Source: an uncultured Candidatus Saccharibacteria bacterium (lineage in GTDB: Bacteria > Patescibacteriota > Minisyncoccia > Phycocordibacterales > GWA1-40-21). Taken from it: a stretch of DNA of 64,000 bases. The notes under the pieces are model-generated. The model saw nothing but the letters and a program-made list of their open reading frames with translations, had not been told where the DNA came from and searched no databases. A program made the position numbers and the translations under genes. Position 1 is the stretch's first letter; the number at the start of each line of letters is the position of its first letter. The stretch is from the NCBI GenBank assembly GCA_964513515.1, contig CAZEMP010000001.1, forward strand, positions 11,336 through 75,335, read 5' to 3'. Of the stretch, positions 10,141-46,112 are shown in pieces.

Positions 10141-10215
10141 AATTATTGTAAAATAAGCGTTATAAGAAAATTGTACGAATTATTACGAATCGTTACGAAT
10201 AATTAATAAACTCAA

Positions 10216-18260: not shown

Positions 18261-18705
18261 GAATCAACAAATGTAACGAATAATACGAATGGCTACAAAT
18301 AAAATACAGGAAAAAGTATTATATCCAGAATTATCATATATATTAGTTGGTGTACTTTTTTCTACCCATAATGAAATTGGTCCATACGCAAGAGAAAAAC
18401 AGTATAATGATCTTATTGAAATAAAATTGAAAGAATCTAAAGTTCCATACAAACGTGAATTTAAAATAGCCGACTCTGGAAATATCCTAGATTTTTTAAT
18501 TGATAATAAGATCATATTGGAAACAAAAGCTACGAGAATTATTACAAAAGAACACTATAGACAAATACAAAATTATTTACAAGCCACTGGTATTAAACTC
18601 GGTATTCTGATAAATTTTAGTAATAGATATGTAAAGCCAATTAGAGTTTTAAAAATGGATCTATAATTATTTGTAGCCATTCGTATCATTAGTATAATTC
18701 GCATA
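18261..18705 (+). mobile_element. GxxExxY-gene element bounded by ~27-bp imperfect terminal inverted repeats (ATACGAATGGCTACAAATAA)
   Basis: The 5' repeat 18281-18305 contains the gene start codon; the reverse complement of the 3' end (18666-18705) matches the 5' end; solo and miniature copies of the repeat occur at 24308-24350 and 39555-39640. Confidence 0.4.
18289..18666 (+). CDS. GxxExxY-family protein
   Basis: 125 aa; N-terminal ...ELSYILVGVLFSTHNEIGPY... (GxxExxY-like), C-terminal GILINF typical of this family. Confidence 0.55.
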   Translation: MATNKIQEKVLYPELSYILVGVLFSTHNEIGPYAREKQYNDLIEIKLKESKVPYKREFKIADSGNILDFLIDNKIILETKATRIITKEHYRQIQNYLQATGIKLGILINFSNRYVKPIRVLKMDL

Positions 18706-18716
18706 TTTGCAAACAT

Positions 18717-19334
18717 ATGAATTCGATTGATAAACTTATTCAAATATTTTCAGAATTTCCTGGTATCGGCCCCAAGCAAGCGAGAAGATTTGTTTATTTT
18801 TTAATAAACAGAAACGAAGCTTATATTGAAGAATTAAAAAATCAAATCTCTGAACTTAGAAAGGGTGTTAGCTCTTGTTTTGATTGTAAAAGGTACTTTT
18901 TTTCAAAGTTCGACACCCAAACTTTATGTAGTATTTGTTCAGATAAAACTCGGGACACAAGTATACTTATGATAGTAAGTCGTGATATAGATTTGGAAAA
19001 TATTGAAAAAGGACACAGTTTTCTTGGTAAATATTTTGTACTTGGTGGACTTGTACCAATACTTGATAAAAATCCTGAGCAAAGGATTCGTTTGAAAGAA
19101 CTTTTAGCTCTTGTGAGTAGAATGTCAGACAAAGGTTTGAAAGAAATAATATTGGGTCTTGATGCAAACTCTGAGGCCGAATATACAGGTAATATTTTGA
19201 AAACTTCCCTCTCCCCCATCACAGAAAAATATTCTATAAAAATATCTGAGCTTGGTCGCGGACTTTCTACAGGAACAGAGCTTGAATATTCTGATCCAGA
19301 AACTATTAAGAATGCATTGAAGAATAGAAGTTGA
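18717..19334 (+). CDS. recR: recombination protein RecR
   Basis: FPGIGPKQARRFVYFL HhH motif, C4 zinc finger (CFDCK...CSICSD), Toprim domain. Confidence 0.85.
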   Translation: MNSIDKLIQIFSEFPGIGPKQARRFVYFLINRNEAYIEELKNQISELRKGVSSCFDCKRYFFSKFDTQTLCSICSDKTRDTSILMIVSRDIDLENIEKGHSFLGKYFVLGGLVPILDKNPEQRIRLKELLALVSRMSDKGLKEIILGLDANSEAEYTGNILKTSLSPITEKYSIKISELGRGLSTGTELEYSDPETIKNALKNRS

Positions 19335-19345
19335 AAGTAAAAGGA

Positions 19346-19381
19346 AAGGCGGCATGCAGTTTAGTAACCACACGCCGCCTT
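19346..19381. terminator. hairpin AAGGCGGC...GCCGCCTT between recR and convergent island gene
   Basis: 8-bp GC stem, convergent gene ends on both sides. Confidence 0.45.
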
Positions 19382-19395
19382 CAGTTGGAAACATT

Positions 19396-19845
19396 CTACA
19401 CACGGGACACCGTCCTTATGTAGAGATTTCCGGAAAATCTCCCGATGACATACTTTGTCATAACGAGAGAATTTTCTGACAGTGTGTTAAAGAACTTTTT
19501 TGAGACTGACACGCTGTCTTGCTTACCATCAAGCCTCACCCACACAGACCAGTTGGCTGGCTCGGTTACGAAGTGAGGCATGCTGGTTTTCGTGGCCGCA
19601 TTGGGTATTAGGATCATCTTAGTGTGTGATGGGGTGAACCTTTTTTTAACCACACGGCCCACTTTTCGACTCGGTTTCAGAAACCATGAGTCGAGTACTA
19701 AGAACAAACCTTCTAGGATGAGCCATATCGATATTAGGACGCTCACCAGTAGGATGATCATGACGATTGTGCCAAGAGGCCAATCGCAGATCCCCCATCT
19801 GATCATAGTCCACAGTTCGTTCAAGAAACTCATGATGTCCTCCAT
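19396..19845 (-). CDS. hypothetical membrane protein (G+C-richer island, gene 0)
   Basis: Annotated ORF extends to 19866 by a TTG start. The first ATG is at 19845, but a GGAGGA SD 4 nt upstream of a second ATG at 19833 favours the shorter start. Minus-strand promoter TTGACT-17-TACAAT at approx. 19885-19915; one TM helix. Confidence 0.4.
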   Translation of the reverse strand: MEDIMSFLNELWTMIRWGICDWPLGTIVMIILLVSVLISIWLILEGLFLVLDSWFLKPSRKVGRVVKKRFTPSHTKMILIPNAATKTSMPHFVTEPANWSVWVRLDGKQDSVSVSKKFFNTLSENSLVMTKYVIGRFSGNLYIRTVSRV

Positions 19846-19973
19846 AGGGTACGATTTACCACTCAATATTCACTCTATCAATTGTAACATACTAAATAAT
19901 AATAGTCAATATTTATGTATAATTAATAAATTTATTCTTTAAATTATAGTTTCATCGGTTTTTAAAAGTAGAA

Positions 19974-20001
19974 GAGCCCCTCCGTTGCCGGAGGGGCTCT
20001 C
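19974..20001 (-). terminator. hairpin AGAGCCCCTCCGTTGCCGGAGGGGCTCT (copy 1 of 2)
   Basis: 11-bp GC stem immediately downstream of minus gene 20023-20511; identical hairpin at 20608-20633. Confidence 0.6.
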
Positions 20002-20022
20002 TTGAATCCTAGAGCTGAAAGC

Positions 20023-20511
20023 TCAGGGATTTTTTTGTTCTTCTTCTTCGATGGCGACACCGGCGTACCACATGGTGTCTTCCCAGCCCACGTCGTTGCG
20101 AACGACGCAGACGAACCGTTCACCTTCCTTGGCATCACCCTTTGGCTTCTCCACGTAGAAGGTAGCGGAGCACCAGTTGCCGTTCTCATCCTGCCAGTGG
20201 GTAGTGTTCGGCCTGGTGTCGATCAGATGCGGATCTTCCTCATTCTTGGCAGCGAGCGAGTACGGATCGGCAGGCACGAGCCCCCGCTTCGCATACTCCA
20301 CATCCGCCGTTTCGTGTGTGAGGAATTTGCCTGGACAGAAAAGGTGGATTTTGACTTTATCCCCCTTTCCTCTCGGCATCTTCGCGACAACCTCGTCGGT
20401 CGTGAGTTTCCTCAGACCAGTCGCATCGAGTGCCTCATGTGGCGATCTCGAACGAATGACCGGGACTTCGTAGACTTCTTCCATCATCGTATTGATCTGG
20501 CCTCCCATCAT
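20023..20511 (-). CDS. hypothetical protein (G+C-richer island, gene 1)
   Basis: 162 aa; minus-strand promoter TTGATA-17-TATAGT and SD TAGGAGAGGTGA 7 nt upstream of ATG; no recognisable family. Confidence 0.45.
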   Translation of the reverse strand: MMGGQINTMMEEVYEVPVIRSRSPHEALDATGLRKLTTDEVVAKMPRGKGDKVKIHLFCPGKFLTHETADVEYAKRGLVPADPYSLAAKNEEDPHLIDTRPNTTHWQDENGNWCSATFYVEKPKGDAKEGERFVCVVRNDVGWEDTMWYAGVAIEEEEQKNP

Positions 20512-20607
20512 GCGTCGTCACCTCTCCTAGAATAAAAAATTACTGCAGAGAACATTTCTGGAAAACTATACACTTTATATTTGTATATATCAAGAGATTA
20601 AAAGAAT

Positions 20608-20633
20608 GAGCCCCTCCGTTGCCGGAGGGGCTC
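20608..20633 (-). terminator. hairpin GAGCCCCTCCGTTGCCGGAGGGGCTC (copy 2)
   Basis: Identical to 19974-20001; downstream of minus gene 20647-21093. Confidence 0.6.
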
Positions 20634-20646
20634 TCTGAACTCTTAG

Positions 20647-21093
20647 CTACTTTTTTACACCAATATAGCGATAAAGATCGCTCCAGTAGCTTGAGACAAA
20701 TACGTCTAGACAGAGAGCACGTTTCTCTGCACTACCAGTTAGATAGGCAGCGGAGCACTCTTTGCTGTATCCGAGAGAAACAATCGGGAATTTCTTTTGT
20801 AGATTTGGCTTTTGGGTAGCCAGACTCAAAAGATCCCAGAATGAACCAGGCATGTACGCTACCTTATCCATTTGAGCCCGAACCTCATCTCGAAACATAT
20901 TTTTATCGAAGTGGAAAAGTGCGATTTCTTTCTTCACCACCTTCGCATTACTTGATCGGGGAAAGTTTTGTTGATCAATTTTGCTATCTATCCAATCAAA
21001 CCTCCCCAATCGCACAGCATCTTCCACTTCTATCGTCTCATCGACCAAAAGAGTGAAAGTTTCCATCGTATAGCCGATCACCCTGTCGGTCAT
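20647..21093 (-). CDS. hypothetical protein (G+C-richer island, gene 2)
   Basis: 148 aa; SD AACGAGGTGAAG upstream; candidate promoter TTGTGA-17-TATTAT; no recognisable family. Confidence 0.45.
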   Translation of the reverse strand: MTDRVIGYTMETFTLLVDETIEVEDAVRLGRFDWIDSKIDQQNFPRSSNAKVVKKEIALFHFDKNMFRDEVRAQMDKVAYMPGSFWDLLSLATQKPNLQKKFPIVSLGYSKECSAAYLTGSAEKRALCLDVFVSSYWSDLYRYIGVKK

Positions 21094-21181
21094 TTTAACT
21101 TCACCTCGTTACCAGAAATAACATTCGAAAAGAACAAGTCATGTGAATAATACACATTTTAAATGTACATCACAATACAAA

Positions 21182-21258
21182 ACGAATTTTCACTTCGTGA
21201 AAATTCGTCTTTTGTTTTTATATTTACTAAAACCTAGTACCTGCCTGCGCAGGCAGGC
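21182..21258. terminator. pyrG 3' terminator region: 12-bp perfect inverted repeat ACGAATTTTCAC/GTGAAAATTCGT plus palindrome CCTGCCTGCGCAGGCAGG
   Basis: Two strong hairpins between pyrG stop (21266) and island promoter. Confidence 0.5.
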
Positions 21259-21265
21259 CTAGAAG

Positions 21266-22918: not shown

Positions 22919-22947
22919 GTTTTGATTTTATCAAAAATTTTTTGCAT

Positions 22948-23016
22948 TGTCATTCCCGCGCATGCGGGAATCTAGGATTTAATTGAATCTGGATTCTCGC
23001 ATGCGCGGGAATGACG
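22948..23016. repeat. composite GC-rich palindromic element (two inverted TGTCATTCCCGCGCATGCGGGAATC hairpin units around an AT spacer)
   Basis: Each unit is itself a palindrome ATTCCC-N8-GGGAAT; second copy of the family at 24393-24466. Confidence 0.6.
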
Positions 23017-24297: not shown

Positions 24298-24307
24298 ATA
24301 TACCAAT

Positions 24308-24350
24308 ATACGAATGTAGCGAATGATACGAATGGCTACAAATAATTAAT
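24308..24350 (+). repeat. solo copy of GxxExxY-element terminal repeat (..GATACGAATGGCTACAAATAATTAAT)
   Basis: Near-exact match to reverse complement of 18666-18705 and to 18281-18305, without an adjacent gene. Confidence 0.55.
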
Positions 24351-24351
24351 A

Positions 24352-24388
24352 ACAAAGCAGTAGCAACCGAAGGTTGCTACTGCTTTGT
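24352..24388. terminator. hairpin ACAAAGCAGTAGCAACC-GAAG-GGTTGCTACTGCTTTGT
   Basis: 16-bp perfect stem between convergent genes. Confidence 0.55.
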
Positions 24389-24392
24389 AAAT

Positions 24393-24466
24393 TGTCATTC
24401 CCGCGCAGGCGGGAATCCAGAATTAATTTGATCAAACCTAGATTCCCGCCTACGCGGGAATGACAT
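24393..24466. repeat. composite GC-rich palindromic element, copy 2 (TTGTCATTCCCGCGCAGGCGGGAATCCAG ... GATTCCCGCCTACGCGGGAATGACA)
   Basis: Same architecture as 22948-23016; abuts stop codon of 24467-26038. Confidence 0.6.
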
Positions 24467-36704: not shown

Positions 36705-37133
36705 ATGAACTTAGTAAGAGTCATTCTTCTTGCCCTGTCTAAACACCAGGGTAAGCCGGTCGTAATACCGGTGATTGTTTTGAAGGTCAGATATTCCCTC
36801 GAGATGATGGGCTATATCAGACAAAATCCTGAGATTCAGAAGTTGAGGGAGATAGGTTGGTCTGAAGAGCGTATCGAGAGAAGGATCGATCGGGACCTGC
36901 CACAAAAGGTTAGGATGGTTTTGCCGAAGCTCGCAATGAGCGGTCGGGCAAAACCCTTCTATCTTTCAAAACTTCGAAAGATCGCCAGTGGGTCGGAGAA
37001 GAAGTTCAGAGAGTTGGTTACGAGATCTGGTGTTGTTTTCACCGATTCAAGCCAACTCGATAGTTCGCAGACTGCCTATCAGATCACAAGCAAAGGTCTG
37101 AGATGGTGGCTGAAACACAAAAATCTTCCCTAA
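36705..37133 (+). CDS. hypothetical protein, paralog P1 (G+C-richer)
   Basis: ORF track starts at 36642 (TTG); ATG at 36705 preceded by CTGGGGGCAAAA, same context as paralog P2. Followed by hairpin terminator 37159-37196. Confidence 0.45.
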   Translation: MNLVRVILLALSKHQGKPVVIPVIVLKVRYSLEMMGYIRQNPEIQKLREIGWSEERIERRIDRDLPQKVRMVLPKLAMSGRAKPFYLSKLRKIASGSEKKFRELVTRSGVVFTDSSQLDSSQTAYQITSKGLRWWLKHKNLP

Positions 37134-37158
37134 AAAGAAGATGTGGCCGTATAGGCCA

Positions 37159-37196
37159 GAAGCCCGCAGGAAGGTAACACTTCCCTGCGGGCTTTC
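37159..37196 (+). terminator. terminator GAAGCCCGCAGGAAGGTAACACTTCCCTGCGGGCTTTC (copy 1)
   Basis: 14-bp stem + T-rich tail; near-identical copy at 37699-37735. Confidence 0.6.
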
Positions 37197-37275
37197 TGCT
37201 TTTAAAAAACTAGACTTTATTTTTATAAAGTATATAGTTGTCTCGAATTTGTACACAAACAACTTGGGGGTAAAA

Positions 37276-37692
37276 ATGGATGCGGAAGAAACAGTTCTCG
37301 TCTTATTGAATAGGCATGGTAGCAAACCGATGCCCTGTTCAAATCTGCTGGTGCAGGCAGCTTGTCTTTCTGATGAGATCAACTGTGAGGCACGGAGGAA
37401 AAAAGATCAGTTGAGAAGCCTGGGGTATTCAGAAAAACTGATTCAGGAGATCGTAGATTTGCATAGTCACAGGACTGTGCAAACTACTCTCGATCTTTTA
37501 GAGAAGAAAGGGCTCATCGTGGGGAGACAGAACGAGCAGAAACTTCTTCGCGACATTGAACATTTAAACCTGAAGATTCTTCCGAGTGTCATGGAGCAAC
37601 TCAGGATCAATCTTCTCTCCTACAAGCTTACCAAGAACGGTTTACAAAAGCTGTGGGAGAAAGCCGCAAGAACACAGGGTTCAGATCATTGA
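37276..37692 (+). CDS. hypothetical protein, paralog P2 (G+C-richer)
   Basis: Homologous to P1 along full length (..LLNRHGSKPMP.. vs ..LLALSKHQGKPVV..; ..YKLTKNGLQKLWEK vs ..YQITSKGLRWWLKH); SD-like TTGGGGGTAAAA before ATG. Confidence 0.45.
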   Translation: MDAEETVLVLLNRHGSKPMPCSNLLVQAACLSDEINCEARRKKDQLRSLGYSEKLIQEIVDLHSHRTVQTTLDLLEKKGLIVGRQNEQKLLRDIEHLNLKILPSVMEQLRINLLSYKLTKNGLQKLWEKAARTQGSDH

Positions 37693-37698
37693 ACCAAA

Positions 37699-37735
37699 GA
37701 GCCCGCAGGAAGGTAACACCTCCCTGCGGGCTTTC
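37699..37735 (+). terminator. terminator GAGCCCGCAGGAAGGTAACACCTCCCTGCGGGCTTTC (copy 2)
   Basis: Duplicate of 37159-37196 with one loop substitution. Confidence 0.6.
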
Positions 37736-37758
37736 TGCTTATAAATAAAATTGCAAAC

Positions 37759-38256: not shown

Positions 38257-38559
38257 CTAACCAAAGAACTTGATCATCTCCTTTCCGCCACAACCCGTGC
38301 TGTTCCTCCTGTCGCTCTTATAGGAAAGGGTTATTTCAACCTTTCCTTTTAAAACGACGAACCCTTTTTTCACATCGAGATGTAAGCCGAAACCCGTGAA
38401 GGTTCTGCAGACATTTCTGAGATGCTCGTCTCTTTTAAGACGGTCAAGAAGTAGGAACCCCTCCTTTTTTCGGTCCTTGTCTAGCCAGCAAATGCCGTAC
38501 TCCGAAAGTTCATCCTTGAGTCTAAGTACGATCACCTTTTCAGCTTCCCTTCCTAGCAT
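38257..38559 (-). CDS. hypothetical protein (G+C-richer single-gene cassette)
   Basis: 100 aa; minus-strand promoter TTGCAG-17-TATAAA and SD GGGGTGA; no family recognised. Confidence 0.35.
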   Translation of the reverse strand: MLGREAEKVIVLRLKDELSEYGICWLDKDRKKEGFLLLDRLKRDEHLRNVCRTFTGFGLHLDVKKGFVVLKGKVEITLSYKSDRRNSTGCGGKEMIKFFG

Positions 38560-39548: not shown

Positions 39549-39554
39549 TATACA

Positions 39555-39640
39555 AATCAACGAATGAACGAATAATACAAATGGCTACAAATAATTAATT
39601 CGTTGTCATTCGTATTATTAGTATAATTTGTTAATTCGTA
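39555..39640. repeat. miniature element: 5' and 3' terminal repeats of the GxxExxY element abutting with no cargo (MITE-like)
   Basis: GAATAATACAAATGGCTACAAATAATTAAT followed directly by TTCGTTGTCATTCGTATTATTAGTATAATT, matching both ends of 18261-18705. Confidence 0.5.
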
Positions 39641-40044
39641 AAGATGTATGGTACAAAAATAATGAGACCTACTATTACAGCTAGAATTGCTGAAAGTAAT
39701 ACTGCTCCAGCAGCCACATCTTTAGTATCTTTTGCGTAAGGATGATATGTGGGCGAAGTAAGATTCATATCTATTTCTATCGCAGTATTGAAAGCCTCAG
39801 AAATAAAAACTATTCCAGAAACGATAAGTATCATTATCCATTCAATTTTTGTAATTTGAAAAAATATTCCTGCAGCTATAACAAAAACAAACATAGTGAA
39901 GTGTATCCATGCGCTATGTGTAGATTTCATAAAAATCCAAAGTCCCCTTCCAGCATGAGTAAGGCTCTCTGCTCTTTTTATAAAAGAAAACTTTTTTGAG
40001 ATACTTGCCACGTGTGAATTTTCACTTAATTTAGGTTTTGACAT
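39631..40044 (-). CDS. dgkA: diacylglycerol/undecaprenol kinase (DgkA family)
   Basis: Three TM helices; conserved SEAFNTAIE and GAVLLSAI segments. Confidence 0.65.
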   Translation of the reverse strand: MSKPKLSENSHVASISKKFSFIKRAESLTHAGRGLWIFMKSTHSAWIHFTMFVFVIAAGIFFQITKIEWIMILIVSGIVFISEAFNTAIEIDMNLTSPTYHPYAKDTKDVAAGAVLLSAILAVIVGLIIFVPYIFTN

Positions 40045-45911: not shown

Positions 45912-45982
45912 TGGGGGATCGTCTAATGGTAGGACGCGTGCCTTTGGCGCATGCAATCGGGGTTCGAGTCCCTGTCCCCCAG
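45912..45982 (+). tRNA. tRNA-Gln (anticodon TTG)
   Basis: Cloverleaf by eye: acceptor TGGGGGA/TCCCCCA, anticodon arm CGTGC-CTTTGGC-GCATG, T-arm CGGGG-TTCGAGT-CCCTG; 71 nt, no encoded CCA. Confidence 0.8.
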
Positions 45983-46047
45983 CAAGTCAAGTTTTGAATG
46001 TGTTTTTACATTCAAAACTTTACTAGATGGGGAGCATTTGGGACTCG

Positions 46048-46112
46048 AAAGACGGAGTGCGACGGCACGAGTCGGGGTCGCAAGATTTTTCAGCAGAAAA
46101 ATACTTGTGACC
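46048..46112 (+). ncRNA. conserved 65-nt structured element, copy 1 (AAAGACGGAG-GTGCGACGGCAC-GAGTCGG-GGTCGCAAGATTTTTCAGCAGAAAAATACTTGTGACC)
   Basis: 90% identical copy at 57790-57853; differences are compensatory within predicted stems (GTGC..GCAC vs GCAC..GTGC). Confidence 0.45.

Follow-up and report, generated by a model that had tools for sequence, protein, structure and literature searches.

The 1.9-kb spacer between recR and pyrG of a Parcubacteria (Patescibacteria/CPR) genome is probably a variable accessory spot holding three autonomous units, of which two encode reduced paralogues (P2 and P3) from a variable-protein family of diversity-generating retroelements (DGRs), with no retroelement in the 64 kb analysed, while the third codes for an unrelated, membrane-anchored protein (P1). 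We propose that these are moron-like transcription units, each consisting of a promoter, a Shine-Dalgarno sequence, a single gene and an intrinsic terminator, and that P3 and P2 are ancient paralogues stemming from a Patescibacterial DGR variable (target) protein family. The full-length relatives (~205 aa) have an N-terminal helical segment ahead of a C-type-lectin-like domain whose final ~33 residues are rewritten from an adjacent template repeat (TR) by an Avd/reverse transcriptase (RT) pair, while P2 and P3 would have been cut down to the lectin-like domain and uncoupled from the retroelement. As such, they may represent fixed-specificity, apparently cytoplasmic ligand binders, with the former variable region as the putative binding face. 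The spacer was analysed as part of a 64-kb window, which here denotes the whole stretch of DNA under study (64,000 nucleotides).

Three minus-strand genes are present, as a previous sequence-only reading of this DNA had described, and each is preceded by a promoter-like element of its own, in the form of a match to the sigma70 consensus. The features of the cassette are given below, with the promoter-like sites predicted by a sigma70 consensus scan and the listed Shine-Dalgarno sequences read from the DNA.

21147 to 21175, minus strand: predicted P3 promoter-like site (TTGTGA-17-TATTAT)
~21102-21108, minus strand: P3 Shine-Dalgarno sequence (GAGGTGA)
20647 to 21093, minus strand: P3 gene (148 aa)
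20608 to 20633, minus strand: predicted P3 intrinsic terminator (11-bp GC stem, GCAA loop, U-rich tail)
20565 to 20593, minus strand: predicted P2 promoter-like site (TTGATA-17-TATAGT)
Upstream of ATG 20511, minus strand: P2 Shine-Dalgarno sequence (GGAGAGGTGA)
20023 to 20511, minus strand: P2 gene (162 aa; start ATG 20511)
20012-20024: small hairpin overlapping the P2 stop codon
19972 to 20001, minus strand: predicted P2 intrinsic terminator (13-bp stem, GCAA loop, U-rich tail)
19881 to 19909, minus strand: predicted P1 promoter-like site (TTGACT-17-TACAAT, with an upstream TG)
19396 to 19833, minus strand: P1 gene (145 aa; true start ATG 19833 within the ORF 19396-19845/19866)
19345 to 19382, minus strand: predicted P1 terminator hairpin (17-bp stem, U-rich tail)
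19974 to 20012 and 20608-20646, no strand assigned: copies 1 and 2 of a 39-nt direct repeat (90% identical)

The start of P1 at ATG 19833 was set by alignment with its homologues and by a GGAGGA Shine-Dalgarno sequence. An ORF on the opposite strand (20002-20535, plus), reported by the sequence-only reading, does exist and lies opposite the homology-supported P2 gene. The same reading had described an identical 26-bp hairpin occurring twice, and the 26-nt palindrome GAGCCCCTCCGTTGCCGGAGGGGCTC is indeed found in two exact copies (19974-19999 and 20608-20633), the first of which had been extended to 20001 by two flanking bases. The copies follow P2 and P3; the hairpin behind P1, with its 17-bp stem, is a different one (19345-19382; -28.3 kcal/mol; z = -6.2) and sits between the convergent P1 and recR genes. 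The P3 terminator, beginning 13 nt past its stop codon, has the same sequence as the 26-nt core (19974-19999) of the P2 terminator, which lies 22 nt past the P2 stop. Read on the minus strand, both copies are predicted to fold into hairpins with 11-13-bp stems, GCAA loops and U-rich tails behind them, at folding energies of -38.7 and -30.8 kcal/mol (z = -5.9 and -5.0, respectively). Such a palindrome pair is not expected by chance (0/100 shuffles), no further copy with up to three mismatches occurs in the 64 kb, and the 39-nt repeat copies flank the 634-bp P2 unit comprising promoter, gene and terminator. Neither Rfam, at its gathering thresholds, nor a scan for tRNAs yielded a match within or beside the cassette. 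Genes of the P2 family usually end in ordinary terminators, made of a GC hairpin and a T-run, with an assortment of tetraloops (GCAA, GAAA, TTCG or CTTG). The P2 orthologue of one related locus (L097) is followed by a related terminator stem (AGCCCCTCC...GGAGGGGCT), while the terminator of a P3-like gene in another (L098) differs. The duplicated hairpins are probably Rho-independent terminators and not the recognition sites of a two-component module. In all likelihood the P3 terminator arose from that of P2 by duplication or was homogenised with it, presumably through gene conversion.

P2 and P3 had been described as unlike each other, but homology between them is detected both by BLASTP (E = 0.008) and by hhalign (probability of 96.6%, E = 5.8e-10). 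An exhaustive HMMER scan placed them in a family whose representatives, typically ~205 aa long, number 3345 at E <= 1e-3 and 371 at E <= 1e-30, overturning the ORFan status suggested by a word-indexed search in which one to six relatives per protein were found. The e-values of P2 against the P2-like HMM (2.6e-61) and of P3 against the P3-like HMM (6.4e-90) are circular, given that the alignment of the former includes P2 and the latter was made from P3 and a single relative, P0002. Non-circular support for P2 is provided by a tblastn search with the family member P0016, which recovers the P2 gene in the window (E = 3e-33). The closest homologue of P3 is P0002 (39% identity), the gene for which has a VR at its C-terminal end, a TR with differences at adenines and an adjacent bAvd gene. 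P3 is a short form from the P3-like branch of the Patescibacterial family, consisting of the lectin-like domain alone, and P2 is a short form from its P2-like branch. Both proteins begin just ahead of the first strand of this domain and are devoid of the N-terminal helical segment (~45-60 residues) of their full-length relatives. No signal peptide or transmembrane segment was found in either, suggesting an apparently cytoplasmic localization. Core family residues are retained and the AF2 model of P2 is confident. The family fold is of the C-type-lectin type, its variable segment being C-terminal, and the lectin-like domain of P3 is putative. By sequence, P2 and P3 belong to the Patescibacterial DGR variable-protein family, and ligand binding would be the most likely role of both.

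The three proteins had been said to match no recognizable family, which holds for Pfam, PHROGs, PADLOC and NCBIfam, where scans of P1, P2 and P3 returned noise only, but P2 and P3 fall in the unnamed family of 3345 representatives and P1 in a small conserved one. A Foldseek comparison of P2 against the PDB was not significant, and profile searches of PDB sequences with the P2 and P1 families were empty or gave noise. Known variable proteins and related lectin-like folds, namely Mtd of a Bordetella phage (1yu0), TvpA of Treponema (2y3c) and the FGE-type and Bdellovibrio fibre-tip CLec domains (1y4j, 8oks), show no detectable sequence similarity and no significant Foldseek match, and in comparison the P2/P3 domain is far smaller and stands alone, without trimerisation or anchoring domains.

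The assignment to a DGR family rests on the loci of the relatives. Species-representative Patescibacteria genomes provided 66 testable full-length members, each followed by 2 kb or more of sequence. Of these, 38 carry a variable region (VR) of ~100 nt at the 3' end of the gene, with a TR 420-540 nt (about 450) downstream of it and mismatches almost exclusively at TR adenines (17/17 in one example), while an RT was found in 41 and Avd in 37 of the 66. The RT of one such locus matches RVT_1 (E = 1.5e-19) and its accessory gene matches bAvd (E = 4.9e-12). The presence of VR/TR pairs with adenine-biased mismatches beside bAvd and RT identifies the P2/P3 family as a DGR variable-protein family. The RT and Avd of the same locus, used as tblastn queries, recover RT in 43 and Avd in 45 family loci, while neither was found in the 64-kb window (best E: 0.49). 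Likewise, blastn searches for a TR in the window (word size 7; last 180 nt of P2 plus 80 nt) returned the terminator repeat only, and apart from this repeat the 3' ends of P2 and P3 have no counterpart anywhere in the 64 kb. The nested inverted repeat of ~48 nt that is situated behind the stop codon at family loci is missing here. Short-form members were found at only two of 80 genome loci, both of which are without TR, RT and Avd. Based on these sequence comparisons, P2 and P3 look like orphan, frozen copies of the DGR family.

The known proteins nearest to P2 and P3 are the DGR targets of CPR bacteria, placed in DGR clade 2 (Roux et al. 2021, PMC8144416) and in the unassigned VR classes termed 'UVR' (Wu et al. 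2018, PMC5758913). P2 and P3 fall in their sequence family (HMMER, hhalign), and the C-terminal segment corresponds by homology to the VR. As has been described for CPR targets, they are without signal peptide, transmembrane segment or Pfam domain, and their genes are likewise predicted to be monocistronic and terminator-ended and are high in GC3. Unlike these targets, they have neither TR, Avd and RT within 64 kb nor the post-stop element, lack the N-terminal residues, include in P2 an insertion and an acidic tail, and occur as tandem divergent paralogues where a single target is usual.

A reading in which P2 and P3 are decaying remnants of a former DGR locus that has shed its RT, Avd and TR, i.e. 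truncated relics on the way to becoming pseudogenes, would account for the loss of N-terminal segment, post-VR element and retroelement alike, for the GC3 of P3 (0.45) drifting toward host values and for indels in the VR-equivalent region of P2, where an 11-residue insertion relative to the family is found. It is nevertheless unlikely, as both ORFs are intact and have promoter matches, their Shine-Dalgarno sequences are good and their terminators strong, core family residues are conserved and the model is confident. Furthermore, an intact short-form P2 orthologue occupies the same site in a related organism (RecR identity: 91%), and short forms recur in the family, with about ten of the 150 best representatives measuring 143-165 aa.

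The gene order dnaB-recR-pyrG is kept in relatives in which pyrG lies on the same contig (RecR identity: 58-92%), while the recR-pyrG spacer varies. It measures 5-54 bp in seven related loci and carries unrelated cargo of 611-2077 bp in twelve others, a range of lengths and contents that marks the site as a variable hotspot, with conserved flanks around an empty or otherwise filled spacer. L097 holds the P2 orthologue without P3 or P1, and in L098 the P3-like gene directly adjoins recR. The synteny comparison called for by the sequence-only reading therefore upholds the cassette as an insertion. An integron gene-cassette array was considered and rejected, as the hairpins have perfect GC stems of 11-13 bp and run into T-tails, unlike the imperfect palindromes of the attC type, P1, P2 and P3 have predicted promoters of their own, and the neighbours (recR, a PDDEXK_3 gene, dnaB and pyrG) include no integrase-like ORF.

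P1 had been recognized as a membrane protein, and it does contain a transmembrane helix, located between an N-terminal amphipathic helix and a small β-barrel with a DUF2500/YhhM-like fold. The extra amphipathic helix distinguishes it from DUF2500/YhhM proteins (PF10694; 3q6c, 3rd4). No match to PF10694 is listed at E <= 1 in Pfam and the PDB-sequence profile search was empty, so that P1 has the DUF2500-type fold, a small β-barrel behind an N-terminal membrane helix, in common with these proteins, while membership of their sequence family is not supported. Its homologues are solitary in four other genomic contexts (five loci), and an HMM search of these loci found no P2/P3-family member nearby. 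P1 is unrelated to P2 and P3 and tied to them by adjacency only.

The cassette also differs in composition from its flanks, as had been observed previously, with a GC of 0.46, 0.55 and 0.43 and a GC3 of 0.59, 0.66 and 0.45 for P1, P2 and P3, respectively, against a GC3 of 0.22-0.26 for the host genes recR, dnaB, cysS and pyrG. This could be taken as the foreign mark of one three-gene block recently transferred from a G+C-richer donor, and the GC step coincides with the cassette bounds, the site is empty in several relatives, and P1 homologues hold a GC of 0.46-0.53 in hosts of 0.34-0.54. We regard such a transfer as improbable. The three genes differ from one another in GC3 and have independent distributions, the intergenic promoters are host-like (32-40% GC), and GC1, GC2 and amino acid make-up are host-like as well, which confines the deviation to third positions and makes the excess almost purely synonymous. 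High GC3 is moreover constant in the P2 family across hosts of 33-60% GC and is not observed in the adjacent RT (GC3: 0.67 in DGR target genes vs 0.45 in their own RT); over 32 DGR loci the target gene has a mean GC of 0.57, its own RT 0.415 and the flanks 0.468, indicating that high GC is a property of the gene family and no mark of a transferred block. As an almost purely synonymous family trait, it is no proof of recent transfer. Of the horizontally acquired module postulated from sequence alone, the accessory insertion therefore stands, while the argument from G+C content is weakened.

Three tandem paralogue pairs occur in the window, with flanks (terminators or 5' UTRs) that are 85-100% identical beside proteins sharing 22-31% identity. 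It is possible, and is put forward tentatively, that the cassette is one case of an undescribed CPR class of autonomous promoter-gene-terminator units, often tandem pairs of divergent paralogues, in which a GC3 of 0.45-1.00 (genome: 0.25) accompanies host-like GC1, GC2 and amino acid composition, and which would be maintained by a gene-restricted process and not by ordinary horizontal transfer. Candidate processes are strong synonymous selection, GC-biased conversion tied to frequent recombination or retrohoming, and cassette exchange between conserved flanks.

Phage morons, in the Hendrix/Juhala concept, are autonomous promoter-gene-terminator units of deviant composition located between conserved genes. 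The cassette resembles them in its units, each of which has a single gene between a predicted sigma70-type promoter and a predicted factor-independent terminator, in its composition unlike that of its neighbours and in its presence or absence between conserved genes among relatives. It differs in residing in a cellular CPR chromosome and not in a prophage, and in a composition shift that is almost purely synonymous; furthermore, no viral relatives were found for the P1 and P2 families in IMG/VR, or by tblastn in INPHARED, where P1 and the gene of another islet of the window (51452-51877) were searched.

Should P2 and P3 still be active DGR targets, they would have to be diversified in trans by a retroelement elsewhere, with the GC hairpins guiding cDNA homing. 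Their membership in a DGR target family is in keeping with this, and ~20 full-length family members are likewise without TR or RT within 6 kb, suggesting that remote targeting or orphaning is common; non-adjacent targets have also been documented for other DGRs (PMC5758913). In known DGR targets the hairpin has a GC stem of 7-10 bp and a 4-nt loop of consensus GRNA and lies 4-34 bp past the VR (Guo et al. 2011, PMC3240598); the hairpins of the cassette lie 13 and 22 nt past the P3 and P2 stops and have 4-nt loops. The loops are, however, GCAA and not GRNA, and U-tracts follow. A DGR cruciform was set aside as the main reading of the hairpins, as family genes ordinarily end in GC hairpins and T-runs while the post-VR element proper to the family, the ~48-nt nested inverted repeat, is missing here. 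Diversification in trans is further made quite improbable by the failure to find TR, RT or Avd within 64 kb and by the dissimilar coding 3' ends of P2 and P3, the likeness between which starts only past the stop codons, such that a single TR could not serve both. The VR-equivalent segment of P2 contains, in addition to its insertion and acidic C-terminal tail, non-NNC codons (GAA, ATG, AAG), and CPR DGRs usually have one adjacent target (PMC5758913). In 90% clusters spanning NCBI, ENA and Logan, P2 and P3 are each the only sequence of their cluster. The four available assemblies of the region are mutually 100% identical and so speak neither for nor against variation in the VR-equivalent segments.

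Scarcely credible is the toxin/antitoxin- or defence-like pair proposed by the sequence-only reading, i.e. a horizontally acquired toxin-antitoxin or anti-phage two-gene module, since, although small adjacent genes of atypical composition in an accessory region recall type II toxin-antitoxin systems and many defence islands look alike, P2 and P3 are paralogues that share a binding-domain fold, each is predicted to be monocistronic, with a separate promoter and a strong terminator dividing the genes as is not seen in toxin-antitoxin operons, no toxin or antitoxin domain is present, no protein of the three is matched by PADLOC-DB 2.0 at E <= 1 and no meaningful Pfam, NCBIfam or PHROG match was obtained at this threshold, relatives of the three are not co-inherited (L097, L098; P1 alone elsewhere), and family members in other genomes are found in DGR cassettes and not beside toxins.

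In place of the toxin-antitoxin or defence reading, the cassette can thus be given a concrete identity, with P2 and P3 as retroelement-less, domain-minimal members of a DGR-hypermutated CPR family. Profile, fold and VR position together provide a usable definition of this large family, for which there is no Pfam model, and the frozen copies may serve as natural controls in asking which ligands are recognised by the lectin-like proteins that these episymbionts diversify (PMC8144416, PMC5758913). A compositional island, furthermore, need not be recent foreign DNA, as the P2/P3 family and other islets of the window (with genes at 36705-37692, 38257-38559, 48272-49450, 50731-52429 and 59992-60264) have a G+C excess at synonymous sites that is restricted to single genes. 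If this pattern is general in CPR genomes, it would call for a mechanistic explanation, and composition-based detection of transfer in these organisms would be biased.

The local gene order runs from a plus-strand block into the minus-strand cassette as follows:

cysS, dnaB, a PDDEXK_3 gene (18289-18666) and recR, plus strand
19396-19833, minus strand, P1 (membrane protein)
20023-20511, minus strand, P2
20647-21093, minus strand, P3
pyrG, minus strand

Each of the three genes is preceded by a sigma70-like hexamer pair, a predicted promoter, and by a purine-rich Shine-Dalgarno sequence. The likeliest start of the first is ATG 19833 (MSFL...), which is common to all P1 homologues and has GGAGGA six bases 5′. 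A 26-nt palindrome, for which the chance expectation is none, occurs in two exact copies (19974-19999 and 20608-20633), with no third copy found in the window at up to three mismatches; at 90% identity the repeat spans 39 nt. In the coding (minus-strand) orientation each copy can fold into a GC stem of 11-13 bp that is closed by a GCAA loop and trailed by U-rich sequence (-38.7 and -30.8 kcal/mol; z = -5.9 and -5.0), and is predicted to be a terminator, while the P1 gene has a different, 17-bp hairpin (19345-19382). The occurrence of promoter, Shine-Dalgarno sequence and hairpin with every gene points to three monocistronic units. The G+C content, 34.7% in the window, climbs from ~0.30-0.36 to 0.43-0.55 across 19200-21000, and GC3 reaches 0.59, 0.66 and 0.45 in the P1, P2 and P3 genes versus 0.22-0.26 in their neighbours. 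The sequence-only reading is thus borne out on its three ORFs, its G+C step and its hairpins, and the promoter-like element and Shine-Dalgarno sequence it assigned to each gene, together with the compositional difference from flanking genes, were likewise recovered. REP-like palindromes (TTGTCATTCCCGCGCAKGCGGGAATC and CCTGCCTGCGCAGGCAGG) are also found in intergenic positions around pyrG, rplU and the DUF2779 gene (22939-23015, 24384-24464, 21239-21258).

The proteins had been described as unlike each other, which is incorrect for P2 and P3: these are paralogues, aligning over 112 residues by BLASTP (E = 0.008), with profile-profile comparison of the P2-like and P3-like branches giving 96.6% probability (E = 5.8e-10). 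They had further been said to match no family. Curated family libraries indeed hold no model, and a word-indexed search returned just 1-6 relatives; an exhaustive HMMER scan with a joint P2/P3 alignment, however, places both in a large unnamed family of 3345 cluster representatives at E <= 1e-3 (371 at E <= 1e-30), mostly ~205 residues in length. P2 and P3 each form a single-sequence 90% cluster in public collections, and the three further assemblies that cover this region agree with it at 100% identity. A 24-nt stretch of homologous codons (...WCSATF... at 20160-20183; ...ECSAAY... at 20745-20768) is 79% identical in DNA, despite an overall protein identity of only ~22%.

The family was compared at 80 loci of species-representative genomes, which with few exceptions bear the labels Patescibacteria, Paceibacterota, Saccharibacteria or Parcubacteria. 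The final ~100 nt of the family gene recur 420-540 nt downstream, with mismatches almost exclusively where the downstream copy has an adenine (usually 14-18 out of 14-18). Such adenine restriction is the defining template repeat/variable repeat (TR/VR) signature of diversity-generating retroelements (DGRs), and by this signature the family is identified as one of DGR variable proteins. Of the full-length members, 66 are followed by 2 kb or more of sequence; a TR occurs in 38 of these, a reverse transcriptase (RT) in 41 and the accessory gene Avd in 37. In one such locus (L019) the target gene adjoins matches to RVT_1 (E = 1.5e-19) and bAvd (E = 4.9e-12), and the TR reading frame contains the expected Asn codons, while the nearest homologue of P3 (P0002) has the same VR/TR pair and adjoins bAvd. 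This agrees with the literature, in which a cellular DGR clade with targets devoid of recognisable domains is enriched in CPR genomes (PMC8144416) and VR classes of CPR DGR targets were left without fold assignment (PMC5758913). Directly 3′ of family stop codons (e.g. L021 932-980, L044, L012, L037) lies a nested inverted repeat of ~48 nt (...GGACT..GATC....GATC..AGTCC...), which probably serves this DGR clade for target recognition, and the ordinary terminator, a GC hairpin with T-run, begins ~+48 to +56 after the stop. On the Saccharibacteria-labelled contig L029 two full-length members stand in tandem (110-685 and 1099-1716) and have in common a 197-nt 3′ repeat whose mismatches show no adenine bias. 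In a few cases (L016, L020, L031, L048, L062) the MAG bears the label Methylocystis, Bdellovibrionales, Gammaproteobacteria or Methanosarcinales; misbinned CPR contigs may be the reason, or genuine spread beyond Patescibacteria.

The setting of the cassette was compared among 80 metagenomic loci of RecR relatives. The dnaB-recR-pyrG order is kept wherever pyrG is on the same contig (RecR identity 58-92%), and the spacer is empty-like in seven loci (5-54 bp), 90-255 bp in several others, and otherwise 611-2077 bp and filled with unrelated genes, the window spacer being 1931 bp. The spacer of L097 (RecR 91% identical) contains three genes, each with its own predicted promoter and terminator: one for a short P2 orthologue that is just 57% identical, one for a membrane protein other than P1, and an AT-rich one of 275 residues. 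In L098 (RecR 87% identical), a P3-like gene directly adjoins recR. The variable spacer content and these two loci mark the spot as a variable accessory site at which P1, P2 and P3 come and go independently. Transfer of the cassette as a single block is improbable. The PDDEXK_3 gene, which separates dnaB from recR, has ACGAAT-rich repeats on both sides (18262-18302, 18669-18716), and these return at three further sites of the window (10162-10202, 24305-24345, 39554-39645). Among the RecR relatives the gene was detected in L111 alone, and since this copy is closer to the window (89%) than the RecR (73%) and DnaB (82%) of that locus, it suggests a small mobile or exchanged unit.

The window copies of the family appear, within the 64 kb, to be uncoupled from any retroelement. 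No match to a family RT and Avd was found by tblastn against the whole window (best E = 0.49), and a sensitive blastn search of the window with the P2 3′ end, for a TR, matched the terminator repeat alone. The ~48-nt inverted repeat is absent after both stop codons, with stop-to-hairpin gaps of just 13 and 22 nt. P2 and P3 start shortly before the first strand of the predicted lectin-like domain, in contrast to DGR-linked relatives, which have a helical N-terminus of ~45-60 residues. Such short forms make up ~10 of the best 150 family representatives and only two of the 80 loci (L066, L085), both DGR-less. The VR-equivalent segment of P2 contains an 11-residue insertion and several non-NNC codons, and an acidic tail stands where the family ends ...FAGVRK. 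That such copies are decaying relics seems to us improbable. Active diversification in trans is slightly less probable still; the P2 and P3 coding sequences are unlike at their 3′ ends, so that a single TR could not serve both.

Family genes as a rule end in GC hairpins with a T-tail and assorted stable tetraloops (GCAA 5x, GAAA 4x, TTCG 4x, CTTG 3x). DGR target hairpins, as described by Guo et al. (PMC3240598), lie 4-34 bp past the VR and combine a GC stem of 7-10 bp with a GRNA loop. The window hairpins resemble these in form but have a GCAA loop and U-tracts; a residual homing role may persist but need not be invoked. As the P2-like and P3-like branches each have DGR-linked members in other lineages, their split must be old, and the identical terminators are thus probably the result of later conversion or duplication. 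In support, the L097 P2 orthologue has a related terminator stem (AGCCCCTCC...GGAGGGGCT) and the L098 P3-like gene an unrelated terminator.

P1 is unrelated to P2 and P3. Its five homologues (45-61% identity, 41 invariant positions) are solitary on other contigs, beside uvrB/uvrA, recG or other genes, and no lectin-like family member was found near them. The Pfam DUF2500 model does not match P1, and the link to DUF2500 is therefore one of fold resemblance only.

High G+C characterises the family and is not a clock for transfer. Across 74 loci, target genes have a GC of 0.39-0.68 (mostly 0.55-0.62) irrespective of that of the flanks (0.33-0.60), with a mean excess of 0.12 (r = 0.44), and in AT-rich hosts the spike does not reach beyond the 600-bp target gene. 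For 32 complete cassettes the mean GC is 0.57 for the target (GC3 0.67), 0.415 for its own RT (GC3 0.45) and 0.468 for the flanks (target versus flank, p = 1.5e-8), the RT lying at or below host GC (33-60%); base frequencies at target third positions are A 0.13, C 0.41, G 0.26 and T 0.20. A limited survey of the DGR literature yielded no mention of this pattern. GC3 in the window is bimodal, with 54 host ORFs at 0.13-0.30 and 12 small genes, P1, P2 and P3 included, at 0.45-1.00. In these small genes GC1 (0.50 vs 0.46), GC2 (0.36 vs 0.33) and amino-acid composition resemble those of the host, so that the excess lies almost wholly at synonymous sites. Synonymous-site selection, GC-biased conversion or exchange between conserved flanks are possible causes. 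Ordinary expression-linked codon bias does not account for the excess, since the ribosomal and RNA-polymerase genes of the window are not GC3-rich.

The nine further small genes (85-185 aa; GC3 0.46-1.00 versus a genome median of 0.25) form islets outside the recR-pyrG spacer:

36705-37748, with divergent tandem paralogues 36705/37141 (28% identity)
38257-38559
48193-49502, with divergent tandem paralogues 48272/48959 (29%)
50554-52490, with divergent tandem paralogues 50731/51452/51995 (23-31%)
59992-60264

Most have a near-consensus predicted sigma70 promoter (11/12 matches at 48193, 50554, 51267 and 51961) as well as a predicted terminator, a GC hairpin, and their GC1, GC2 and amino-acid make-up are host-like; in 51452-51877 every third position is G or C. 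None has a Pfam match, and phage relatives of 51452-51877 were not found by tblastn against INPHARED. The terminators of 36705-37133 and ~37276-37692 (hairpins 37161-37209 and 37700-37748) are 94% identical over 49 nt, the proteins just 28%, the same pattern as with P2 and P3; the start called for ORF 37141-37692 is probably too far 5′, as its frame crosses the first terminator. The 5′ leaders of 50731-51135 and 51452-51877 contain a 61-nt segment (50623-50683, 51339-51399; 85% identical, proteins just 31%) that folds as a 17+6-bp hairpin with one compensatory pair. The window's two tRNA genes each have a copy of a 65-nt repeat (89% identity) close by, that of tRNA-Gln (45912-45983) 65 nt downstream (46048-46112) and that of tRNA-Asn (58070-58142) ~215 nt upstream (57790-57854). 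Neither segment has an Rfam match at gathering score. A 149-nt direct repeat (77%; 251-399 and 777-925) lies inside the adjacent ORFs 263-727 and 732-1175, which look like another tandem paralogue pair, of host-like composition.

The insertion proposed by the sequence-only reading is supported by the variable spacer in relatives, where the spot is empty-like or differently filled. The toxin/antitoxin-like or defence-like module that it considered compatible with the cassette finds no support and is very improbable. We consider it likely that the cassette comprises three autonomous hotspot units, namely two orphan, domain-minimal DGR-target paralogues and a membrane protein with a DUF2500-like barrel. 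Given the fold, and given the targets of DGR diversification, the chances are roughly even that P2 and P3 serve as binding proteins of fixed specificity, in which the former VR surface would provide the binding face.
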